A stretch of 64,000 nt of DNA. Source: Bacteroidales bacterium. Its GTDB lineage: Bacteria > Bacteroidota > Bacteroidia > Bacteroidales > UBA4417. The notes below the pieces were generated by a model that was not told the DNA's origin, ran no database searches, and saw nothing but the letters and a program-made list of their open reading frames with translations. This document shows positions 38,143 through 64,000 of this stretch, piece by piece. The DNA lies in assembly GCA_038204995.1 (NCBI GenBank), contig JBBRCH010000006.1, forward strand, positions 1,324 to 65,323, in the 5' to 3' direction. Position 1 is the first letter of the stretch; every line of letters starts with the position of its first letter. The position numbers and the translations under genes are program-made.

Positions 38143-40452
38143 ATGAAAAAAATTATTCTGCTTATCTGCTTAATATCAGCATTCAGATCAGTTTCGGCAC
38201 AATCCCAAACACTGCAAAAAGATCATGCAAACCAGGAACTCCAAAGGCGTGGAGAGGTTTACTTCAGTTTTAAATTTACTGATCCTGCTCAACTAAAGTC
38301 ATTAACTCAGAAAATTTCTATCAGCAGTATAGAAGGAAATACTGTATTTGCTTATGCAAATCAGAAAGAGTTTGTTGATTTTGTTACCTACAATTATGAT
38401 TTTGAGGTCCTCACTGCCCCATCCGAACTGTATTCGGTTCAAATGACCGACGATCCTAAACAGGTGCTGACCTGGAATTATTACCCTACTTACACTGCAT
38501 ATGAGTCGCTCATGCAGCAATTTGTGACCGATCATCCTGAAATATGTAAGCTCACCACAATTACAACACTTGCAAGCGGGCGCAAAATTCTGGCGTTAAG
38601 GATATCGGATAATATAAATATTCAGGAAAATGAACCTGAATTCCTGTATACATCAAGTATACACGGTGATGAAACAACCGGATATATCTTAATGCTTCAT
38701 CTTGCTGATTATCTCTTAAACGGATATGGAACTGATGACCGGATTACCAATATGATAAATAACTTTGATATTGTTATTTGTCCACTCGCTAATCCTGACG
38801 GAACATATCATGGCGGTAACAATTCAGTAAATGGCGCTACGCGTGGCAATGCCAACAATATTGATCTGAACCGCAATTACCCTGACCCAAAACACGGACC
38901 ACATCCTGATGGAAATGCCTGGCAGCCTGAGACTGTTGCATTTATGAACTTTGCCGGATTTAACACTTTTACCATGGGAGCAAATTTTCATGGAGGTGCC
39001 GAAGTAGTTAACTATCCGTGGGATACATGGTCGAAATTAACTGCTGATGATGCCTGGTGGGTTTATGTCAGCCGCGAGTATGCTGATACGGTTCATGCAA
39101 ATGCACCCCCGACCTATATGGATGATCTTATGAACGGAATAACCAACGGATATGCTTGGTACGAAATTTCCGGCGGCAGGCAGGATTACATGAATTATTT
39201 CAGGAATTGCCGTGAAGTAACAATCGAAATATCAAATACTAAAATATTACCTGAAAGTCAGCTAATTACACACTGGAATTACAACTATCGATCCTTTTTG
39301 AATTACATTGAAGAGGCTGGTTATGGTTTACATGGTCTCGTTACTGACTCCATGAGTGGTGCACCGCTGAATGCGAAAATTTTCATTTCAGGATTCGATA
39401 AAGACAGCTCACATGTTTATACTGATCCACAGGTTGGCGACTATCACAGGCTTCTGAAGGCAGGTATCTATAATGTTACCTACTCTGCAAACGGGTATTC
39501 ACCAAAGACTTATTCAGTGCAGGTTATCGATAAACAGACCACTGTGCTTAACGTACAACTTTATGATGGGCGACTTGAAACCAATTATACAGCAGATACC
39601 AGTATAGTAGCGGTAGATCAGTCTGTTCATTTTATTGATCAGTCGGCGGGATATCCGCAAACCTGGACGTGGACCTTTGAAGGAGGTGTTCCAGCTACTT
39701 CATCAGAGGCAAATCCGGTAATAACTTATTCACAACCAGGTGTTTATGCTGTAAAACTTGTTGTTACCCGAACCGGTTCAATAGACTCACTGATCAGAAA
39801 TGATTTTATCGAAGTGAAACCCTGGTATATCATGGGTAATAAAACCTATACAATTTGTGATGCTCATTTCTTTGATACAGGTGGACCTGCCTTTCAATAT
39901 TCGGAAAATGAAAATAGCGTCATCACTTTCTATCCAAATGAGTCAACAAAAAAACTGACTGCTCTGTTCAATAATCTGCAAATTGAAAATGGTGGAACTG
40001 ATTGTATAAATGACAGATTATTAATTTTTGACGGCATCTCTACCAATGAGAATTTAATTGCATCAATTTGCGGGAATAATCTTCCTCAGAAAATAATGGC
40101 TACCAATGCTAACGGAGCATTGACATTTCAATTTATTTCTAACGCAACCATCTCCGCTTCAGGGTGGGATATCACACTAAGTTGTGATTCGAACGTTGGA
40201 ATAATCGAAAACAGGCAGGCTGATATTCGTATTTATCCAAATCCCGTTCTTAACGGAAGTGCATGTATTGAATCAGATAATCTGATACAAATGCTTATGG
40301 TGAGAGATATTACCGGTAAAGTCGTTGCTTCAGCAACCCCTTTGAGCAAAAAATATTTCATCAGGAGCAACTGGCCATCAGGAATTTACCTGGTTCAGAT
40401 GCAGATTAAAGGTAAATGGATAAGTAAAAGAATACAGGTAATAAACAAATAA
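38143..40452 (+). CDS. M14 zinc carboxypeptidase - PKD - CUB-like - T9SS C-terminal sorting domain protein
   Basis: 769 aa. It has a signal peptide and the M14 motifs SSIHGDETTG, NPDG and FHGG. A carboxypeptidase-regulatory-like beta domain follows. Next come a PKD-like segment (VHFIDQS...YSQPGVYAVKLVV) and a Cys-bounded CUB-like segment. The tail is IYPNPV...GIYLVQMQ...IQVINK. Confidence 0.85.
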   Translation: MKKIILLICLISAFRSVSAQSQTLQKDHANQELQRRGEVYFSFKFTDPAQLKSLTQKISISSIEGNTVFAYANQKEFVDFVTYNYDFEVLTAPSELYSVQMTDDPKQVLTWNYYPTYTAYESLMQQFVTDHPEICKLTTITTLASGRKILALRISDNINIQENEPEFLYTSSIHGDETTGYILMLHLADYLLNGYGTDDRITNMINNFDIVICPLANPDGTYHGGNNSVNGATRGNANNIDLNRNYPDPKHGPHPDGNAWQPETVAFMNFAGFNTFTMGANFHGGAEVVNYPWDTWSKLTADDAWWVYVSREYADTVHANAPPTYMDDLMNGITNGYAWYEISGGRQDYMNYFRNCREVTIEISNTKILPESQLITHWNYNYRSFLNYIEEAGYGLHGLVTDSMSGAPLNAKIFISGFDKDSSHVYTDPQVGDYHRLLKAGIYNVTYSANGYSPKTYSVQVIDKQTTVLNVQLYDGRLETNYTADTSIVAVDQSVHFIDQSAGYPQTWTWTFEGGVPATSSEANPVITYSQPGVYAVKLVVTRTGSIDSLIRNDFIEVKPWYIMGNKTYTICDAHFFDTGGPAFQYSENENSVITFYPNESTKKLTALFNNLQIENGGTDCINDRLLIFDGISTNENLIASICGNNLPQKIMATNANGALTFQFISNATISASGWDITLSCDSNVGIIENRQADIRIYPNPVLNGSACIESDNLIQMLMVRDITGKVVASATPLSKKYFIRSNWPSGIYLVQMQIKGKWISKRIQVINK

Positions 40453-56190: not shown

Positions 56191-57387
56191 ATGGTAAAAA
56201 GAACCATTGTAGCAATGCCAGGCGATGGTATTGGCAAAGTAGTACTTGATCAATGTATCCGCGTCCTCAATGCTGCCGGATTTAAAGCTGAATATATTAC
56301 TGGCGACATTGGATGGGAATTCTGGTGTAAAGAAGGAAATCCTCTGCCTGACCGTACTATTAAACTTCTGGAAGAGCATAAAATAGGACTATTCGGGGCT
56401 ATCACTTCCAAACCAAAAGACAAGACGGCTGCTGAACTTGCTCCTGAATTGCAGGGAAAGGGGTTTACATATTACAGCCCTATAGTAACTATGCGCCAGC
56501 ATTTTGACCTGGATATCTGCATGCGCCCTTGTAAAACGCTGAAAGGAAATCCATTGAACTTTATTCGTCGAGGAAAAGACGGAATTGATGAGCCGGAGGT
56601 AGATGTTATGATATTCCGACAGAATACAGAAGGTTTGTATGGTGGGGTAGAATGGACAAATCCTTCGGACCAGGTTTACGATGCATTGATGACTCATCCA
56701 AAATTCAAAAAGAACTTTGGCTGGTGTCCTCGTCAGGAATTGGCCGTTTCAACACGCATTTTTACAAAAAAATATGTTACCCGGATTGTGAAGGCAGCCT
56801 TTGAATATGCCAAACAACGAGGCTTCAGCAAAATCACTGTTTGCGAGAAACCAAATGTTATCCGCGAAACCTCCGGCATGATGCTGAAAGTTGCCCAGGA
56901 AATGAGCAAAGCCGAATACCCCGAAATATGGGTTGAGGACGTAAATATTGATGCTATGACCATGTGGCTCACCAAAAATCCGGAAAACTACAATGTTATT
57001 GTTGCCGGAAACATGTTTGGTGATATTGTTTCGGATGCTTTTGCCGGATTGATCGGTGGATTAGGATTTGCTACATCTGCACAGTTCAATCCCGAAACCG
57101 GAGTCAGCGTTTTTGAACCTACGCATGGTTCAGCGCCTAAATATGCCGGTTATGCTGAATCGATAGTAAACCCAATTGCGATGATACTTTCAGGGGTAAT
57201 GATGCTCGAACATCTTGGCGAAATGGAAATGGCTTCCCGCATCAGGAAAGCAATTGCCGATGTGGTTGCCGAAGGAAAAATCAGAGCATATGATATGCTG
57301 AAAATGAAAGGTTCACCTGATGTTATCAAACAGGGAGCTGCTTCAACAAAGCAAATGGCAGATGCAATAATCGCGAAATTAAAATAA
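56191..57387 (+). CDS. isocitrate/isopropylmalate dehydrogenase family protein (beta-decarboxylating dehydrogenase, IDH-like)
   Basis: 398 aa. It has IVAMPGDGIGKVV, SPIVTMRQHFDLDICMRPCK, FRQNTEGLYGG, NMFGDIVSDAFAGLIGGLG and EPTHGSAP. Confidence 0.8.
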   Translation: MVKRTIVAMPGDGIGKVVLDQCIRVLNAAGFKAEYITGDIGWEFWCKEGNPLPDRTIKLLEEHKIGLFGAITSKPKDKTAAELAPELQGKGFTYYSPIVTMRQHFDLDICMRPCKTLKGNPLNFIRRGKDGIDEPEVDVMIFRQNTEGLYGGVEWTNPSDQVYDALMTHPKFKKNFGWCPRQELAVSTRIFTKKYVTRIVKAAFEYAKQRGFSKITVCEKPNVIRETSGMMLKVAQEMSKAEYPEIWVEDVNIDAMTMWLTKNPENYNVIVAGNMFGDIVSDAFAGLIGGLGFATSAQFNPETGVSVFEPTHGSAPKYAGYAESIVNPIAMILSGVMMLEHLGEMEMASRIRKAIADVVAEGKIRAYDMLKMKGSPDVIKQGAASTKQMADAIIAKLK

Positions 57388-57441
57388 TTGCTCAATCAGG
57401 CAGGGCTACTTCCCAGCGGCTCTCTTTAAAACAGCTGTTGT

Positions 57442-58008
57442 ATGAAAATTGAAACAAAATATTACGAACAGGCTCGTGAACTCTGGCCGGAACTTGATTG
57501 GATAACAGATAACGATTTGAAGGAAAAAACGACTCTCACCTGGGCTTTAGCCCTGCAAAGGAGCATTTTAACACCGGATGACCTAAATACAATACCGTTC
57601 ACCTTACTTTGTGGTCCGGATCTTAAAGTAACATTCATGGATCATAAGCGTTGTGTTGTTCATGTAGCCCTTGATGCCGGTAAAAAGATGAATGAATTCT
57701 TCAGGAATGATCTGCCGGTAAATATGGATGTTCTTATTGCAGGTGCAATACTTGCCGATGTTGGGAAATTACTTGAATACGAAATAAAAGACGGGAAATC
57801 AGTCCAGGGAAGTTATGGTAAATACCTCAGGCACCCTTTTTCAGGCGTGTCGCTGGCTGAACAATGTGGAGTTCCGGCACCGGTATGTCACATTATCGCA
57901 ACACACGCAGGAGAAGGCGATATGGTAAAGCGATCTACAGAAGCCTATATTGTGCATCATGCAGATTTTATGACATTTGAGCCCTTTCGGGAGAGACTGA
58001 AATTGTAA
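57442..58008 (+). CDS. HD-superfamily domain protein with a non-canonical AD in place of the HD dyad
   Basis: 188 aa. The first His lies in CVVHVALDAG. The expected HD position, 32-33 residues later, reads AGAILADVGK (codon GCC). The later HPFSG, THAG and IVHHADF elements are retained. Confidence 0.6.
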   Translation: MKIETKYYEQARELWPELDWITDNDLKEKTTLTWALALQRSILTPDDLNTIPFTLLCGPDLKVTFMDHKRCVVHVALDAGKKMNEFFRNDLPVNMDVLIAGAILADVGKLLEYEIKDGKSVQGSYGKYLRHPFSGVSLAEQCGVPAPVCHIIATHAGEGDMVKRSTEAYIVHHADFMTFEPFRERLKL

Positions 58009-58069
58009 GACCTCACTCCATGTACCCCTCTGCCTGGGTAGAGGGGATTTTAATCCAAAAATATTATCC

Positions 58070-59869
58070 ATGACAATTATTGAAAAGATTATAGCAAATC
58101 ACAGCAGTCAGGCATTGGTAAAACCTGGTGATATAGTAGATGTATTTATTGATGCACGCGCAGCACGCGATTTTGGTGGTGCCAATGTTGTCGAAAACAT
58201 CCTTAACAATGGACTCAGTGTTCATGATGCCACACGTACTTTCTTTACTTTCGACTGCAATCCGGGTGGATCAGACCAGAAATATGCTGCCAACCAGCAT
58301 TTCTGCAGACTTTTTGCCCGCCAGAATGATATAAAAGTATATGATATTGATGCCGGTGTCGGAACCCACCTCGCCATTGATAAAGGACTCGCATATCCCG
58401 GAAGTACTTTCGTTTCCACTGATTCGCATGCTAACATCATGGGGGCAATCGGTTCTTTCGGACAAGGTATGGGTGATCAGGATATAGCAGCTGCCTGGGC
58501 AAAAGGTTCTGTTTGGTTCAAAGTACCTGAATCAGTAAAACTAATACTCAAGGGAAAACGTCCGGCAAATGTAAAAGCTAAAGATATTGTACTGAACCTT
58601 CTGTCAATCTATGGCGCCAATAAATTACTTGGCTATTCCGTTGAAATTGAAGGAGATGCAGTCGAAGGATTTTCGCTCGACGAACGAATAACCATAGCAT
58701 CGATGGGCACGGAAATGGGCGCAATCATAATACTTTTCAGTCCAAACGAAAGATTGCTTGATGAATTGCAGGCACGCACCGGAAAACGGGTTGAAACTAT
58801 AAAAGCCTCAATTGGTGCTAAATATACTTTCGTGCACGAAATCGACATTGAGAAGTTTGTGCCCATGGTTGCCAATCCTGGTCATCCACATGACGATGTT
58901 TCTGTGGATAGTGTAAAAAACACGAAAATTGACTCGGCTTTCTTGGGAAGTTGTACTAACGGGCGTATGGAGGACCTTCGCGAAGCTGCCAGCCTGCTTA
59001 AAGGCCGTAAAATAGCTCCCGGCGTGGTGTTTAAAATTGTACCGACCACGGATGCTATCTGGCGGGAAGCGCTGGATGAGGGACTGATTCAGATTTTTAA
59101 AGATGCAGGAGCACTGGTATCGAATGCAGGTTGTGCAGGTTGTGCTGCTGGACAGGTCGGACAAAATGGCCCTGAAGAAGTAACAATAAGCACCGGTAAC
59201 CGTAATTTCTCCGGTAAACAAGGCAAAGGTGCTATGTATTTGGCATCACCGGGCGTAGTAACTGCTTCTGCCATAGCCGGCTATATTACTACTCCGGATG
59301 ATATTCCCGATACAGCGGCAGTTTTTTCAAAGCCAGGCCTCAAAAAACATGAAGTAGTTGTTCGTGAGAAAACAGAAAAGCCTGAAATCATTGAAGGCCG
59401 GGCATGGGTAATATATCAGGATGACATTGATACGGACATGATATTTCATAACCGTTATCTGACCATAACCAACATTAAAGAGATGGGCCAATATACTTTC
59501 GATAACCTGAAAGGATACGAGGATTTCGCAAAAAAAGCCCAGGCCGGTGATATTGTATTCACCACCAAGAATTTCGGGGCAGGAAGTTCACGACAGCAGG
59601 CTGTTGATTGTTTCCAGTCGCTCGGAGTAACTGCCATTGTTGCCGAATCATTCGGAGCGATCTATGAGCGAAATGCCATCAATGCAGCACTTCCAATTTT
59701 AACCTATTCTTCCGGGCAGCTTGAAGAGCTTAATCTACAGCCGTTTGATCAGGTGAGGGTAAATTTCAGCACAGGAGAAATAACTAATATCACCAGGAAT
59801 ATATCTCTGAATATCAATAAGTTTTATGATGCTCAGATGCAGATTTATAGAAACGGAGGATTACTTTAA
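58070..59869 (+). CDS. fused large+small subunit aconitase-family hydro-lyase (LeuC-LeuD / homoaconitase / aconitase type)
   Basis: 599 aa. The large-subunit part has DSHANIMG, LGSCTNGR and NAGCAGCAAG (Fe-S ligand region). The C-terminal ~170 aa is a swivel/small-subunit part with KNFGAGSSRQQAV. Confidence 0.8.
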   Translation: MTIIEKIIANHSSQALVKPGDIVDVFIDARAARDFGGANVVENILNNGLSVHDATRTFFTFDCNPGGSDQKYAANQHFCRLFARQNDIKVYDIDAGVGTHLAIDKGLAYPGSTFVSTDSHANIMGAIGSFGQGMGDQDIAAAWAKGSVWFKVPESVKLILKGKRPANVKAKDIVLNLLSIYGANKLLGYSVEIEGDAVEGFSLDERITIASMGTEMGAIIILFSPNERLLDELQARTGKRVETIKASIGAKYTFVHEIDIEKFVPMVANPGHPHDDVSVDSVKNTKIDSAFLGSCTNGRMEDLREAASLLKGRKIAPGVVFKIVPTTDAIWREALDEGLIQIFKDAGALVSNAGCAGCAAGQVGQNGPEEVTISTGNRNFSGKQGKGAMYLASPGVVTASAIAGYITTPDDIPDTAAVFSKPGLKKHEVVVREKTEKPEIIEGRAWVIYQDDIDTDMIFHNRYLTITNIKEMGQYTFDNLKGYEDFAKKAQAGDIVFTTKNFGAGSSRQQAVDCFQSLGVTAIVAESFGAIYERNAINAALPILTYSSGQLEELNLQPFDQVRVNFSTGEITNITRNISLNINKFYDAQMQIYRNGGLL

Positions 59870-59880
59870 TTTTCAGAGGC

Positions 59881-59922
59881 AAAACTATAAGCCCGGCGGA
59901 GATCCGCCGGGCTTATAGTTTT
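59881..59922. terminator. strong bidirectional intrinsic terminator
   Basis: AAAACTATAAGCCCGGCGG (59881..59899) pairs with CCGCCGGGCTTATAGTTTT (59904..59922). The stem is 19 bp and perfect, with loop AGAT. The A/T runs are part of the arms. Confidence 0.85.
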
Positions 59923-59946
59923 GTTCAACTCAATGATTTTAAGCTT

Positions 59947-60309
59947 TCAAAATTCTTTTATTTCGGTTCTTGCCTTGAAGGATGTATAATAAAAGAGCGC
60001 TCCTGGAACAATAAATGGTAAACCATAGATCAGTGCTATTTCAATCTTACCTGATCCACCCATAAACATCAGGTATATGGCCATAATTGCTCCACCTGAG
60101 ATCATTACAAGGCTTCCCTTTACTGAATTGTAAACAGCCCAGATATACCCTGAAACCGAAAAAATCATCATGATCAGTATTGGAATTACCCTGGCTTTGC
60201 CATCAATAAGTTCAGTGCCAGCTATGGTAATCAGAAAAAGACTAAAAAACGCCGACGCCTGGAAGCCAAGTATTATAGCTGCATAGCGCAGTATTTTTAA
60301 AGTTTTCAT
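59947..60309 (-). CDS. small integral membrane protein (hypothetical)
   Basis: 120 aa with four hydrophobic segments. I recognised no motif. Confidence 0.5.
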   Translation of the reverse strand: MKTLKILRYAAIILGFQASAFFSLFLITIAGTELIDGKARVIPILIMMIFSVSGYIWAVYNSVKGSLVMISGGAIMAIYLMFMGGSGKIEIALIYGLPFIVPGALFYYTSFKARTEIKEF

Positions 60310-60332
60310 GTTACTTTAACAAATTAAATTTC

Positions 60333-60938
60333 TTATTTTGCACCAAACTCAGTCTTTACATTTAGATAGCCAGGATAGGTTATAGGGAAACCATTTACTG
60401 AAATCGTAGGCTTCATCTGAAGGGTAAACCGGGTTGGTTTATTTCCTGCACCGGCAAGGTTCATCCCAAAATTGATTATGGCATCGGCACTTTTGCCAGA
60501 AAGAGCCTGTTTCAGGTCTACATGCATCTGCATCGGAATGATAGCCGAACCATTATTTGCCGGTATGTTTACTTGTTTATCAAGAATGCCGTGAGTCATT
60601 TCCACATCATCTATCAGGAGTATCCAATCTATCCTGGTCATTCCTGCTGCAGATGAATTTGGATTTCTGGCTTCAATATTAAGTGTGAAATCGAGAGGGA
60701 ATTGCTGTGAGGCAACCGCATTTGCCAGTTTGGCAGCATCCAACATAGTCAGATCTGATACCTTTTTCACATTCTGTACATTTATTCCGGCAAGATTTAA
60801 GTGCTGCACCGACTCGAGCCTGAAATCACATTTTGTGAGGTTACTTACCTGAGAAACCTGCTGTAAAACATCACAGGAAGTAAAAAACGCTATGGAGCAT
60901 ACCAGGGCTATCAGAGATATTCTTTTTTTAGTCATCAT
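60333..60938 (-). CDS. lipoprotein, LEA type-2 / NDR1-HIN1-like domain (tentative)
   Basis: 201 aa. The lipobox is FFTSC. The beta-rich body with FPLDFTLNIEARNPN...IDWILLIDDVEM resembles LEA_2 domains. Confidence 0.45.
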   Translation of the reverse strand: MMTKKRISLIALVCSIAFFTSCDVLQQVSQVSNLTKCDFRLESVQHLNLAGINVQNVKKVSDLTMLDAAKLANAVASQQFPLDFTLNIEARNPNSSAAGMTRIDWILLIDDVEMTHGILDKQVNIPANNGSAIIPMQMHVDLKQALSGKSADAIINFGMNLAGAGNKPTRFTLQMKPTISVNGFPITYPGYLNVKTEFGAK

Positions 60939-61048
60939 TTTGGATTATTAGATTGAATACCTGGTCAAACAAAAACCATTCCATTCTCTTTATTTAGAAT
61001 TGCTTCAAATTGCAATGTCAATAATCAATGTTAAATAAAATTACCGAC

Positions 61049-61068
61049 ATTTGAGCAATTAAATACTT
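61049..61068 (+). promoter_or_regulatory. shared 20-bp motif, copy 1 (promoter/operator candidate of the first Rrf2 gene)
   Basis: ATTTGAGCAATTAAATACTT ends 10 nt before the ATG at 61079. It matches the copy at 61556..61575 in 17 of 20 positions. Its 5' end overlaps a near -7 box, GACATTTG. Confidence 0.45.
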
Positions 61069-61078
61069 GTTTAACACA

Positions 61079-61480
61079 ATGGCGAAAATAGTTTCTTATT
61101 CCGAAGCCGCTTCCATAGGTATGCATGGCATGGTGCTTGTTGCCCGTGCCCGTGAAACCATAAATGTACAGAAAATAGCTGACATAACAGGTTCCTCGCG
61201 CCATCATGTTGCCAAAGTTATGCAACGGCTTGTAAAAGAAGGCTTTTTAGCTTCAAACCGCGGCCCGTCCGGTGGTTTTAAATTAAATATGGAACCGGGT
61301 AATATTACATTATTACAAATATACGAAGCAATCGAAGGGAAGGTTAAAGTTATAAGTTGCCCTCACGAAAAACAGGTGTGCCCTTTTGAAAAATGTATTA
61401 TGGGTACAGTTGTTTCAACGATGACACAGACCTTCCGTGATCATTTGTCATCCAATACTCTTTTGGACCTGATAGCATAA
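61079..61480 (+). CDS. Rrf2 family transcriptional regulator (Fe-S cluster type)
   Basis: The track ORF starts at TTG 61067. The ATG at 61079 gives MAKIVSYSEAASIGMHGMVLVA, the usual Rrf2 N-terminus. It has a winged HTH (IADITGSSRHHVAKVMQRLVKEGFLASNRGPSGGF) and the Cys triad C-x6-CPF-x2-C. Confidence 0.85.
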   Translation: MAKIVSYSEAASIGMHGMVLVARARETINVQKIADITGSSRHHVAKVMQRLVKEGFLASNRGPSGGFKLNMEPGNITLLQIYEAIEGKVKVISCPHEKQVCPFEKCIMGTVVSTMTQTFRDHLSSNTLLDLIA

Positions 61481-61555
61481 AAAAGTCTGCTAAAACCGGT
61501 TCAAGAGTTCTGATTTTTTTATCAATACTTCAATTCATTTCTTATAATTTTATAT

Positions 61556-61575
61556 ATTTGCGCATTCAAATACTT
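61556..61575 (+). promoter_or_regulatory. shared 20-bp motif, copy 2 (promoter/operator candidate of the second Rrf2 gene)
   Basis: ATTTGCGCATTCAAATACTT overlaps an exact TAnnTTTG box (TATATTTG, 61553..61560). It ends 15 nt before the TTG at 61591. Confidence 0.45.
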
Positions 61576-61590
61576 AAATTCCTATATAGC

Positions 61591-62010
61591 TTGAGCCGAC
61601 TTGTACATATTTCTGAAGCTTCTTCCCTGGCTATACACAGCATGGCTCTGATTGCTTCTTCCGAAGTTAGTCTTAATGTAAAAAAAATAGCAGAAATTCT
61701 TCATGTTTCACGACATCACCTTGCTAAAATTTTGCAGGTACTGGCTAAAAACGAGTACCTTGAATCGAACCGTACTCCAGGTGGCGGTTTTATTTGTAAA
61801 AAGCAGGCCGATCAGATAAGTATTCCCGAAATATATCAATTGATTGAAGACGATTTGGATTGCGTGTTTTGTGGTATCAACGAAAACCGATGTCCTTTTA
61901 TCACTTGCATTTTCGGTGGAAAGCCGGACAAACTTACCAAGGAATTTGTTGAATATTTGAACCATACAAAAATTTCAGACCTGAAAACGAAAGACATTAC
62001 ATATGCTTAG
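61591..62010 (+). CDS. Rrf2 family transcriptional regulator, second tandem paralog
   Basis: The track ORF starts at TTG 61558. The in-frame TTG at 61591 aligns with paralog 1 ((M)SRLVHISEASSLAIHSMALIA). The HTH is IAEILHVSRHHLAKILQVLAKNEYLESNRTPGGGF. The Cys pattern is C-x2-C-x6-CPF-x2-C. Start choice is uncertain. Confidence 0.8.
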   Translation: MSRLVHISEASSLAIHSMALIASSEVSLNVKKIAEILHVSRHHLAKILQVLAKNEYLESNRTPGGGFICKKQADQISIPEIYQLIEDDLDCVFCGINENRCPFITCIFGGKPDKLTKEFVEYLNHTKISDLKTKDITYA

Positions 62011-62941
62011 AAAAATCATTCAGATTGACGAAGAGAAATGCAACGGATGCGGATTATGTATACCTAACTGCCATGAAGGAGCACTGCAGATAATAGATGG
62101 TAAAGCTCGCTTAATCAGTGACTTGTTTTGTGACGGACTAGGTGCATGTTTGGGTCATTGCCCTGAAGGAGCCATCGAAATTATTGAGCGTGAAGCAGAG
62201 CCATATAATGAAACTGTTGTTATGAAAACTATCGTAAGACAAGGGCGAAATACCATACTGGCTCATCTCGAACATCTGCGCGATCATAATGAGCACGAAT
62301 TCCTGAAAGAAGCCGTAGCATATATCAAAACGAATAATATAGACCTTAGTCCGGAAGCCGGAAAAAAACCGTCAGTGGAATCCAAAGTAAATTTTCCAAC
62401 TATGAAAGAAGCCTTGAACCATGTAAAACCTGAGCATGAAAGTGCATGTGGATGCGGAAGTTCCAAAACCATCGATTTTAAAATCGATATAGACAAAGTG
62501 AATGCTGCAGCAGCTGTTTCAGCAGTATCCGCTCAAACAAGTGAAGTTTACAATGCTCCATCAGAACTTCGGCAGTGGCCTGTTCAACTCCACCTGGTTA
62601 ATCCTATGGCATCCTATTTTCAAAAAGCGGATGTTGTTTTAGCTGCGGATTGTGTGGCTTTTGCTATGGGCGATTTTCATGAAAGTTTGCTTAAAAACAA
62701 ATCACTGGCAATTGCCTGCCCGAAACTTGATACCAATAAGGAAGTTTATATAGACAAGCTTTCAACCATGATCTCAGATGCAAAAATAAACACTCTTACA
62801 GTTCCGATTATGGAAGTTCCCTGTTGTGGCGGGTTGATCCAGATGGCCAAAATGGCTGTTCAGCAATCAGGACGAAATATACCGATCAAGAAAATAGTTG
62901 TTGGTATAAAAGGTGATATTCTGAACGAGGAATGGGTGTAG
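62003..62941 (+). CDS. 4Fe-4S dicluster ferredoxin-domain protein with Cys-rich C-terminal domain of unassigned function
   Basis: 312 aa. CNGCGLCIPNC and CDGLGACLGHCP are two ferredoxin-type cluster motifs. Further Cys motifs are ACGCGSS, AADCVAF, ACPKLD and MEVPCCGGL. Its start overlaps the upstream stop by 8 nt. Confidence 0.75.
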   Translation: MLRKIIQIDEEKCNGCGLCIPNCHEGALQIIDGKARLISDLFCDGLGACLGHCPEGAIEIIEREAEPYNETVVMKTIVRQGRNTILAHLEHLRDHNEHEFLKEAVAYIKTNNIDLSPEAGKKPSVESKVNFPTMKEALNHVKPEHESACGCGSSKTIDFKIDIDKVNAAAAVSAVSAQTSEVYNAPSELRQWPVQLHLVNPMASYFQKADVVLAADCVAFAMGDFHESLLKNKSLAIACPKLDTNKEVYIDKLSTMISDAKINTLTVPIMEVPCCGGLIQMAKMAVQQSGRNIPIKKIVVGIKGDILNEEWV

Positions 62942-63003
62942 ATCATTTGCAACCCTTTCAATTACTGTTACTCATTTCCACTAACTTTTAACCCATCCGA
63001 AAA

Positions 63004-63333
63004 ATGGAAAACGAAAAAATTAAACACAGCACTCCTTTTGTTTTCTCAGATTCAATCAGCTACCAGGTTGACGGTATCGTGAGCAAAAAAATTATCCAGA
63101 AGGAAAAAGGGAACATTACATTATTTGCATTTGATGCCGGTCAGAAACTAAGTGAGCATACAGCACCTTTTGATGCTTTGGCGCAGGTTATGCAGGGAAA
63201 TGCTGAAATAGTTATTGGTGGTACGCCCAACCTGATCAAGGCCGGGCAAAGCATTGTTATGCCTGCTAATATTCCGCATGCTGTAAATGCAAATGAGCGC
63301 TTCATTATGCTCTTAACCATGATCAGGGAATAA
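63004..63333 (+). CDS. cupin domain protein
   Basis: 109 aa. SEHTAPFDALAQVMQGNAEIVIGG...MPANIPHAV has the cupin_2 two-motif layout. Confidence 0.7.
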   Translation: MENEKIKHSTPFVFSDSISYQVDGIVSKKIIQKEKGNITLFAFDAGQKLSEHTAPFDALAQVMQGNAEIVIGGTPNLIKAGQSIVMPANIPHAVNANERFIMLLTMIRE

Positions 63334-63345
63334 TCCAGACTTATA

Positions 63346-63702
63346 ATGTTTCTTACTAAAAAACGTCGTGAAAGAGAAGCAATCATTGTTCAGACAATGA
63401 TAAAAATGTATTGTACGGCAACTCACAAGAGCAAAGGAATTTTATGCGATGAATGCCTGGCGCTTTCAGTTTATGCAGAGAAACGACTGCTCAGATGCAT
63501 GTACGGAGATTTGAAACCCGTGTGCAAGCATTGCCCTGTCCATTGTTATTCGCCGCACATGCGCGAACAAATGAAGCTGGTAATGCACTGGGCAGGACCA
63601 AGAATGATCTTTAGAAAGCCGGTTTTTGCTGTAATGCATTTGATTGATCATTTAACTGCTTCAAAAGCTGAAGATAAATCTTTCCGAAAACCGAATAAAT
63701 AG
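63346..63702 (+). CDS. nitrous-oxide-stimulated-promoter family protein (YgbA-like)
   Basis: 118 aa. It has KRREREAIIVQTMIKMYC, LCDECLALSVYAEKRLLRCMYGDLKPVCKHCPVHCYSPHMRE and VMHWAGPRM. This matches my memory of the YgbA_NO family pattern. Confidence 0.8.
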   Translation: MFLTKKRREREAIIVQTMIKMYCTATHKSKGILCDECLALSVYAEKRLLRCMYGDLKPVCKHCPVHCYSPHMREQMKLVMHWAGPRMIFRKPVFAVMHLIDHLTASKAEDKSFRKPNK

Positions 63703-63747
63703 AAATGAAAACATTTTAAGTATACTTAGTAACACTTATTTTTTACA

Positions 63748-63767
63748 GTGCCTCCGGGCGCATTTTT
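63748..63767 (+). terminator. intrinsic terminator after the ygbA-like gene
   Basis: GTGCC (63748..63752) pairs with GGCGC (63757..63761), including one G-U pair, across loop TCCG. The sequence A-TTTTT follows. Confidence 0.5.
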
Positions 63768-63845
63768 AATGCCTGATTTCTCCGGTACAAATCAATCAAA
63801 TTAATACCTTTGTAGCGGAATATCATTATATTATACCTTATTTTT

Positions 63846-64000
63846 ATGACAACTTCTACCTCTTCTGATCCGGCTACATCTGCCAATGTAATTGATATGT
63901 TTACAGTGGCAAACGAATTCTGCATTTTTACTGAAAAAGCTGAAAAATATGACCCGGACGAGGTGATACATTATTACTCCAAAATCTGTCCCTTGTTATA
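63846..64000 (+). CDS. hypothetical protein, N-terminal fragment (DUF5063-like by memory); continues beyond the window end
   Basis: The ATG at 63846 gives MTTSTSSDPATSANVIDMFTVANEFCIFTEKAEKYDPDEVIHYYSKICPLL. The open frame reaches the window edge. A TAnnTTTG box (TACCTTTG, 63805..63812) lies upstream. Confidence 0.45.
   Translation, partial: MTTSTSSDPATSANVIDMFTVANEFCIFTEKAEKYDPDEVIHYYSKICPLL

Follow-up and report, generated by a model that had tools for sequence, protein, structure and literature searches.

The DNA analyzed here is a stretch of 64,000 nucleotides (nt) from a Bacteroidales bacterium (contig JBBRCH010000006.1; called the window throughout), and positions 61079-63702 of it hold a genuine five-gene locus of an uncultured anaerobic Bacteroidota bacterium. 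The locus encodes two paralogous Rrf2 regulators (Rrf2a and Rrf2b), an FrdX-like iron-sulfur (Fe-S) protein, a small cupin and a member of the YgbA family. We consider it reasonably likely that the locus represents a stress-inducible operon directed against nitric oxide (NO) and nitrite, which would be controlled by the two Rrf2 proteins in the role of repressors. The reading of the locus as a nitrosative/redox-stress module had been put forward in an initial annotation made from the sequence alone; the comparative evidence supports it, and nothing that the annotation had named as refuting came to light. The genes and associated elements are the following:

61079-61480, + strand: Rrf2a, 133 amino acids (aa), a-type Rrf2 regulator with predicted Fe-S ligands C94, C101, C106 and E9
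61591-62010, + strand: Rrf2b, 139 aa, TTG start, b-type Rrf2 regulator, 8-nt overlap of its stop with the start of the next gene
62003-62941, + strand: FrdX-like Fe-S protein, 312 aa, Fer4 and AF_0155 domains
63004-63333, + strand: small single-domain cupin, 109 aa, Cupin_2
63346-63702, + strand: YgbA-family Cys-rich protein, 118 aa, YgbA_NO
61047-61069, + strand: putative promoter/operator element A, 5' of Rrf2a, ACATTTGAGCAATTAAATACTTG
61554-61581, + strand: putative promoter/operator element B, 5' of Rrf2b, ATATTTGCGCATTCAAATACTTA
63748-63771, + strand: weak terminator-like hairpin (GUGCC-UCCG-GGCGC) with U-run

The regions 5' of the two regulator genes have a direct repeat of 33 nt in common. 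Element A contains an inverted repeat (ATTTG-N6-TAAAT) that overlaps a -7 box of the Bacteroidetes type; it matches the core pattern ATTTGNGYAWTYAAATAC exactly at 61049-61066 and scores 29.7 bits with a position weight matrix (PWM) built from seven sites. Element B carries an exact match to the same pattern at 61556-61573 (34.0 bits), together with a degenerate third half-site (AAATTC), and its TATATTTG fits the consensus of the Bacteroidetes -7 box, TAnnTTTG. These are the only two exact copies in the 64-kb window, and with at most two mismatches the pattern occurs three times where 0.48 matches would be expected. The third match (38344-38361, - strand, ATTTGCATAAGCAAATAC, two mismatches) falls within, or at the border of, a long open reading frame (ORF) and is compatible with chance.

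The association of this element with the regulator and Fe-S genes extends well beyond the window. Exact copies were found in eight genome loci, exclusively 5' of Rrf2 or Fe-S genes, two of these loci (L004 and L014) having been left out when the pattern was defined. PWM matches also lie directly 5' of Fe-S genes, with no regulator gene in between (L003, L016, L021 and L022), and in L022 the element is present though there is no adjacent Rrf2 gene. Within 499 kb of independently fetched metagenome loci all 100 matches of at least 20 bits are located directly 5' of an Rrf2b (76) or an Rrf2a gene (24), and at 24 bits there are 95 matches on the + strand versus a single one on the - strand. The element lies 15-55 nt upstream of the b-type genes (the 76 metagenome matches), and the block found in element A recurs 5' of the a-type genes of L001-L003 and of 24 metagenome loci. 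The resulting logo reads tATATTTG-CGyATT-CAAATACC-TAAATAC, i.e. an inverted repeat TATTTG-N6-CAAATA the left arm of which is the -7 box. Its inner half-sites, GyAT and ATrC, resemble those of the NsrR motif gATGyAT-N5-ATrCATc (PMC1274295), with a spacer of 4 nt here versus 5 nt there. Because of its position, its symmetry and its co-occurrence with the regulator genes, we infer that the element is an Rrf2 operator; a dimer bound to it would cover both the -7 box and the start site.

Two further observations concern the same element. A third half-site, AAATAC (consensus positions +22 to +27), follows 8 nt past the right arm. Although the PWM does not cover it, it hardly varies, 84 of 85 sites having a T at +25; of the two copies in the window, site B shows a degenerate form (AAATTC, 61576-61581) and site A lacks it. 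It could mean that two or more dimers bind, or could serve as a signal for the start site. Furthermore, a weaker copy (16.8 bits) precedes nrfH in L021 (position 6652) and, as nrfHA is found near the Fe-S gene elsewhere too, this hints that the genes for nitrite ammonification are part of the same regulon in some lineages.

The five ORFs are all on the + strand with intergenic distances of 110, -8, 62 and 12 nt, in agreement with the initial annotation, which had described them as co-directional with gaps of at most 110 nt. The genes for Rrf2b, the FrdX-like protein, the cupin and YgbA are tightly packed as a single transcription unit, and Rrf2a and Rrf2b each have a promoter-like element of their own. 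The 8-nt overlap between the second regulator gene and the Fe-S gene that had been pointed out is indeed there (ATGCTTAG, 62003-62010), the ATG of the latter starting at 62003 and the TAG of the former ending at 62010. For Rrf2b the same product of 139 aa is called in the near relatives L001 and L002; a longer version could start from a TTG at 61558, which would engulf the conserved promoter element. Between Rrf2a and Rrf2b no convincing terminator was found, and a search for RNA families (Rfam, window positions 58000-64000, E <= 0.1) returned none. As to the terminator that had been placed at 63748-63767, a hairpin (63748-63761) followed by a T-run does exist, but it is weak (a 5-bp stem, z = -1.4), and terminator-like sites are no commoner in the sequence than in its shuffles.

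Both regulators clearly belong to the Rrf2 family. Rrf2a scores 99.5 bits with the Pfam model (PF02082, cutoff 30) and 90.7 with TIGR00738 (cutoff 73.3), whereas the corresponding values for Rrf2b are 71.2 and 76.0, so that both proteins pass both models. The two are 38% identical over 131 residues without a gap, share the recognition-helix motif SRHHxAK and each contain the pattern C-x6-CPF-x2-C that had been noticed in the sequence (C94, C101 and C106 in Rrf2a). The three Cys residues of Rrf2a and its E9 align with C93, C99, C105 and D8, the [4Fe-4S] ligands of Streptomyces coelicolor NsrR (5n07); a MAFFT alignment puts E9 one helical turn off, which makes the match of the carboxylate less certain than that of the cysteines. 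In the alignment of b-type sequences residues I7, S8, E9, A10, H16, C94, C101 and C106 are invariant. Judged by these alignments, the ligand set of functional NsrR, three cysteines and a carboxylate, is present in both regulators. Among proteins of solved structure the redox sensor RsrR (6hsd, E = 1.5e-8) is the top match of Rrf2a, and the sequence cluster to which Rrf2a belongs had already been named 'nitric oxide-sensitive transcriptional repressor' by the JGI pipelines.

At the level of individual subfamilies the models are far less accommodating. The IscR, RirA, CymR and HypR equivalog models fail (scores of at most 46 bits versus cutoffs of 180-275; for IscR, 45 bits for Rrf2a and 46 bits for Rrf2b versus 208), as does the Xanthomonas SUF regulator model (58 bits versus 110), and the NsrR equivalog behaves likewise (see below). 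The two proteins are, as far as the models and alignments tell, built like NsrR, yet they are not NsrR orthologs. In a tree of all Rrf2 proteins that adjoin the Fe-S gene, those of the Bacteroidota form a clade of their own, recognizable by the N-terminal signature ISEAxSxAxHS and the recognition helix S-(R/K)-(H/N)-H-x-A-K, and this clade splits into an a-type (CP-x5-CPF-x-KC), which includes Rrf2a, and a b-type (CG-x6-CPF-xx-C). The Rrf2 proteins next to the Fe-S gene in other phyla are of the ordinary type, with GATAC...GTATC palindromes upstream.

To determine the distribution of the tandem, metagenome contigs were scanned with the alignment of b-type Rrf2 sequences, which yielded 71 non-duplicate loci. 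The Fe-S gene directly follows the b-type gene in 67 of them, the remaining loci being truncated, and an a-type gene is present within 600 nt upstream in 32 of the 53 loci that have at least 700 nt of upstream sequence. Such a-b loci span Rrf2b identities from 81% down to about 48%, on account of which we regard the tandem pair as an old and maintained arrangement. Among the species representatives it was found only in L004 (Bacteroidales UBA5197; Fe-S protein 62% identical), besides the near relatives L001 and L002. That the genes are co-conserved in related genomes, as the initial annotation implied, holds for the full order of five in L001, L002 and 13 metagenome loci, all within the clade of the window (76-81% identity), and for four of the five genes in L003, a Lentimicrobiaceae genome. 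The Rrf2a-Rrf2b-Fe-S core is conserved far more widely than that order. Other metagenome loci have different downstream blocks, namely a-b-FeS-Hcp-DUF438 with or without the cupin, b-FeS-Hcp-cupin, b-FeS-cupin and, in a single case, a-b-FeS-YgbA-cupin-DUF438. On this comparison the five-gene form in the window is a clade-specific variant, with cupin and YgbA where others have Hcp and hemerythrin.

An exact look-up of the window's Fe-S protein on contigs gave no match, and close homologs were used instead. A scan of one genome per GTDB species yielded 80 loci, for which three genes on each side were clustered and annotated; they come from Bacteroidota, Ignavibacteriota, Chlorobiota, Planctomycetota, Verrucomicrobiota, Acidobacteriota, Omnitrophota, Spirochaetota, Syntrophia, Clostridia and several archaea. 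In 22 of the 80 species loci a gene for Hcp (prismane) is nearby, mostly behind the Fe-S gene (19 of the 71 species loci with enough downstream sequence have it there), and these Hcps are of class I (Cx2Cx8Cx5C, about 550 aa) or of the short class III (about 430 aa). The same cupin family occurs downstream in 12 of the 71, as well as in many metagenome loci, nrfHA is found near the Fe-S gene in four species loci (including L015, L044 and L050) and a DUF438-hemerythrin-PAS gene in three. As for regulators, an Rrf2 gene is located immediately upstream in 20 of the 69 loci with enough upstream sequence, and a gene for an HcpR-like Crp/Fnr protein, usually divergent, in 16 of these 69. One or more of the neighbors counted here, with the Rrf2 and Crp/Fnr regulators and YgbA included, are present in 51 of the 80 loci. 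The 312-aa protein does not belong to any well-characterized family unrelated to stress, and its family has genomic ties to hcp, nrfHA, the hemerythrin gene, the cupin and regulators of the HcpR-like and Rrf2 types.

Outside the Bacteroidota, other regulators are found beside the Fe-S gene as well, namely HxlR (divergent, in archaea) and TetR (L036 and L058, both archaeal, and L070 and L078). The effector seems to have come under different sensors repeatedly. A 435-aa DUF438-hemerythrin-PAS_10 protein recurs right after hcp or the Fe-S gene (L004, L012, L051, L103 and L107-L137) and might serve in the same response, either as a di-iron sensor or in repair.

These neighborhoods connect the family to a ferredoxin that has been described before. 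The name frdX was given to a hypothetical ferredoxin gene that is co-expressed with hcp under HcpR (PMC545781, PMC1274295). In Desulfovibrio gigas hcp, frdx, nrfA, a polyferredoxin gene and a cupin gene are induced by S-nitrosoglutathione via HcpR1 (PMC4534486), and in Clostridioides difficile frdX-hcp is induced 150-220-fold by NO while knockdown of frdX renders the cells NO-sensitive (PMC12915319). The family fits the published FrdX ferredoxin of such NO-induced frdX-hcp operons: its members lie beside hcp and HcpR-type Crp/Fnr genes, which the window's own copy does not. According to a structural paper from 2023, class I Hcp has no known electron donor, and genes in synteny with hcp are usually lacking (PMC10210160). 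The synteny as seeded from the side of the ferredoxin argues for a dedicated Hcp partner in many lineages.

The Fe-S protein consists of a dicluster ferredoxin domain (residues 1-65), a helical linker (70-121), a disordered stretch (about 123-149) and a Cys-rich alpha/beta domain of the AF_0155 type (150-312), all four of which are also seen in the AlphaFold2 model (pLDDT 86 for the whole protein, 90.6 for the C-terminal domain). The Fer4 models score above cutoff and dicluster models match residues 4-59. Two ferredoxin motifs had been reported from the sequence; the first is complete (CxxCxxCxxxC: C13, C16, C19 and C23), but the second (C43-x5-C49-x3-C53-P) has three cysteines and not four, a form that is family-wide and in which D44 is invariant. 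The second site could hold a [3Fe-4S] cluster, or one in which an Asp or a remote Cys serves as a ligand.

The C-terminal domain, with its motifs ACGCGSS and MEVPCCGGL, had been left unassigned. Both motifs are present and map to the conserved residues C151, C274 and C275, but the domain can be assigned: the precomputed Pfam annotation of the identical protein P0001 includes PF27217 (AF_0155), and all 120 listed homologs (84-90% identical) combine Fer4 with PF27217. AF_0155 is an uncharacterized family, and a HMMER search with residues 170-312 recovered 1,890 clusters (at 50% identity; E <= 1e-3), most of them made up of proteins 250-320 aa long that carry the domain C-terminally. In a diverse alignment of 50 members the conserved residues are C13, C16, C19, C23, C43, D44, G45, G47, C49, C53 and P54 in the N-terminal domain and C151 (GCPG), D216, C217, H226, C239 (ACPKLD) and C274 plus C275 (VPCC) in the C-terminal one; as aligned, the AF_0155 domain carries four or five invariant cysteines. 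The N-terminal domain probably binds two clusters, of which one would be unusually ligated, and the AF_0155 domain probably contributes another site for a metal or an Fe-S cluster. Foldseek searches of the PDB with the full model and with the C-terminal domain gave no match at E <= 1e-3, and a profile search of PDB sequences with that domain gave no relative. The top Foldseek matches, beta-carbonic anhydrases and small GTPases, had template modeling (TM) scores of 0.35-0.4 and were not accepted as homologs. The thought that the domain might be the remnant of a MinD-like ATPase with a ferredoxin insert, which arose from one homolog that is named 'ATP-binding protein' by NCBI, was likewise dropped, as no match to a P-loop or ParA/MinD model was obtained.

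The assignments of the remaining two gene products, like those of the regulators and the ferredoxin domain, bear out what had been proposed, all scores being above the curated cutoffs. The cupin passes Cupin_2 (PF07883; 30.7 bits versus a gathering cutoff of 27.2) and has as its nearest solved relatives 3rns (E = 4e-24) and 1yhf (E = 1e-18), both structural-genomics proteins of unknown function. The last protein passes YgbA_NO (PF11756; 128.7 bits versus 25) and NCBIfam NF007714 (118.5 versus 88), no solved relative was found for it, and the position of its gene in the operon is kept in L001-L003 and in 13 metagenome loci. The link to NsrR that had been drawn for this family is sound as well: in Salmonella ygbA is repressed by NsrR and goes up 32-fold in an nsrR mutant (PMC2884951).

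Combined, these data suggest the following course of events. With their clusters intact (bound, as in NsrR, by three Cys and an N-terminal carboxylate) the Rrf2 proteins would occupy the -7 box and the start site and thereby keep RNA polymerase out. Damage to the cluster, or an alteration of it, by NO or another oxidant would release the repressors, and both promoters would fire, leading to the production of Rrf2a, Rrf2b and the three effectors. The Fe-S protein would then pass low-potential electrons to an enzyme that reduces NO or hydroxylamine, most plausibly an Hcp encoded outside the window; we hold this assignment as electron donor with less confidence than the reading of the locus as a stress operon. 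The cupin and YgbA would be accessory proteins in the same response, of unknown chemistry. Since Rrf2a and Rrf2b share their DNA-reading helix and differ around the Cys loop, they probably recognize one operator, whether as a heterodimer or as homodimers that differ in sensitivity. More tentatively, and with appreciable doubt, we propose that the pair would act as a conserved two-component sensor (a heterodimer whose two cluster sites are not equivalent, or homodimers in competition for one operator) and/or that the Fe-S protein, the translation of which would be coupled to that of Rrf2b, would be the dedicated electron donor of the class I and class III Hcps.

Several observations weigh against the proposed NO-responsive operon. 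Rrf2 proteins sense not only NO but also Fe-S status, iron, cysteine and redox state, and neither regulator reaches the threshold of the NsrR equivalog (NF008240, cutoff 182 bits; 45.4 for Rrf2a and 37.6 for Rrf2b) or of any other named Rrf2 subfamily in NCBIfam. The spacing of the operator arms is unlike that of NsrR sites and, the left arm being the -7 box, part of the conservation is simply that of a promoter. No hcp, HcpR-like Crp, nrfA, nrfH or DUF438 gene was found by tblastn in the 64-kb window, the equation with FrdX (CDR20291_2075, DVU2544) rests on position, architecture and description and not on a sequence comparison, and YgbA is next to the Fe-S gene in only four of 82 genome loci, being rare outside the clade of the window. 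Finally, a DUF5063 gene starts at 63846 in the window, and in L001 and L002 DUF5063-FeoAB follows the operon immediately. The latter observation would suit a pair of Rrf2 proteins that senses iron or the Fe-S supply in the manner of IscR and RirA, with an operon devoted to Fe-S maintenance or iron economy, as would the facts that the effectors are Cys-rich and probably Fe-S proteins and that the models of IscR, the SUF regulator and RirA score about as well as that of NsrR. Yet in some 160 loci the operon never contains an isc, suf or iron-uptake gene; what recurs beside it is hcp, nrfHA, hemerythrin and regulators of the HcpR type. Moreover, the putative operator was seen only at the promoters of the Rrf2 and Fe-S genes (apart from the weaker match at nrfH in L021) and not at feoAB of L001 and L002, the DUF5063-feoAB region of which contains no PWM match of at least 14 bits. 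We therefore consider control by iron improbable.

Equally improbable, in our estimate, is an RsrR-like role of the regulators in sensing redox state or oxygen, with the Fe-S protein as a dedicated reductase that resets them, comparable to the way in which Rsx/RseC keeps SoxR reduced, instead of a partner of Hcp. The idea has its attractions: among solved structures RsrR (6hsd) comes closest to Rrf2a, the clade strictly conserves E9 and H16, weak matches to RnfB/RsxB are obtained with the ferredoxin domain, and Rrf2b and the Fe-S gene are nearly always adjacent (67 of 71) and often overlap. However, all three cysteines of the NsrR type are present where RsrR uses two, and the gene for this Fe-S protein family can also be preceded by a Crp/Fnr, HxlR or TetR gene or have no regulator next to it, and it lies beside hcp in 22 species, company that suits an effector better than an accessory to one specific sensor. 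Least probable of the three alternatives is a functional unit that consists of Rrf2(a), Rrf2b and the Fe-S protein only, the cupin and YgbA being passengers on a shared transcript. The rarity of YgbA beside the Fe-S gene and the variable downstream content (Hcp, DUF438-hemerythrin, cupin, YgbA or none) would be in keeping with it. But the cupin gene lies directly downstream in several phyla, also together with hcp (L063, L070, L144, L146, L155 and L156), a cupin gene is a target of HcpR1 in D. gigas, and YgbA is NO-regulated in enterobacteria and its gene overlaps the Fe-S gene in L060. We prefer the reading of the whole locus as an operon against NO and nitrite.

The surroundings of the operon can be described briefly. 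On its 5' side the divergent lipoprotein-like gene ends at 60938. This ORF encodes 201 aa, matches LEA_2 weakly and is paired with a gene for a DUF7670 membrane protein (120 aa), the two lying at 59947-60938 on the - strand, divergent from Rrf2a. The position of the pair is kept in L001 and L002, the lipoprotein-like gene alone also occurs in L003, and there is no evident connection to the five-gene operon. Further upstream (56191-59869) lie a gene of the isocitrate/isopropylmalate dehydrogenase family (398 aa) and one for a fused aconitase-family protein of 599 aa, with the large and small domains on one chain; this pair belongs to ordinary metabolism. On the 3' side the DUF5063 gene (63846-64000 in the window) begins directly past the operon. 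In L001 (8115-12303) DUF5063 is followed by feoAB, a peptidase_M50B gene and a gene for a FeoB-associated small protein, and in L002, too, feoAB comes after DUF5063; the iron-uptake cluster of the relatives thus adjoins the Fe-S-rich stress operon. L002 (7780-8085) and L003 (9659-9964) have a second cupin gene (101 aa) right after ygbA, which is lacking in the window, where the operon stops at ygbA.

Parts of this picture are already known, i.e. the association of frdX, hcp, cupin and nrfHA genes in HcpR regulons and the control of ygbA and hcp by NsrR. The initial annotation knew of no description of the doubled regulator, the Fe-S protein and the cupin as one unit, and of this only the control by an Rrf2 pair and the Bacteroidota version appear undescribed. 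In the literature searched there was no description of a Bacteroidota-specific Rrf2 clade that regulates such a module, of a conserved a-b tandem of Rrf2 genes with one shared operator fused to a -7 box or of the variant with cupin and YgbA that lacks Hcp, and searches for heterodimeric or tandem Rrf2 paralogs gave incidental matches only. For hcp in the Bacteroidota the only NO-responsive regulator described is the Crp-family HcpR, and a second, Rrf2-based circuit with a defined operator would broaden the view of how anaerobes of sediments, digesters and the gut survive nitrite and NO. The a-b pair offers a concrete case for asking about Rrf2 heteromers or dual-threshold sensing, the synteny of the Fe-S protein with class I and III Hcps provides a testable candidate for the missing Hcp reductase, and YgbA and the small cupin, both long-standing unknowns, now have a place in a defined operon.

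The proposed operon can be compared with four characterized systems. It shares most with the HcpR regulon and the frdX-hcp operons of Desulfovibrio and Clostridia (Rodionov 2004/2005; D. gigas 2015; C. difficile 2026), in which a ferredoxin-like gene beside hcp is found together with nrfHA, cupin and hemerythrin-like genes and an NO-responsive regulator, a likeness that is seen in the neighborhoods of the members of the Fe-S family, including their divergent Crp/Fnr genes. It differs in that the clade of the window has an Rrf2 pair instead of a Crp/Fnr activator, so that control is probably by repression, and in that the window's operon lacks hcp and includes YgbA. With NsrR of enterobacteria, Bacillus and Streptomyces the regulators have in common the Rrf2 fold, the aligned ligands of S. 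coelicolor NsrR (an N-terminal carboxylate besides three Cys), probable autoregulation and a predicted regulon with ygbA and, in relatives, hcp, and their putative operator, an A/T-rich inverted repeat that overlaps the promoter, resembles NsrR sites in its GyAT/ATrC cores; on the other hand, they form a distinct clade with the ISEAxSxAxHS signature, a C-x6-C-x4-C spacing, another spacing of the operator arms and two paralogs in tandem. RsrR, the [2Fe-2S] Rrf2 protein of Streptomyces venezuelae, is the closest solved relative in sequence and likewise has a conserved Glu and His in its first helix, but RsrR employs two Cys together with Glu8 and His12, whereas here there are three Cys, another Glu-His spacing and unrelated targets. 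The Hcp-Hcr system of Escherichia coli (class II), finally, also has a dedicated redox partner beside hcp that is co-regulated with it by an NO-responsive regulator. Hcr, however, is an NADH oxidoreductase with flavin and [2Fe-2S], whereas the Fe-S protein described here has neither a flavin nor an NAD domain, pairs with Hcps of class I and III and carries the AF_0155 domain.

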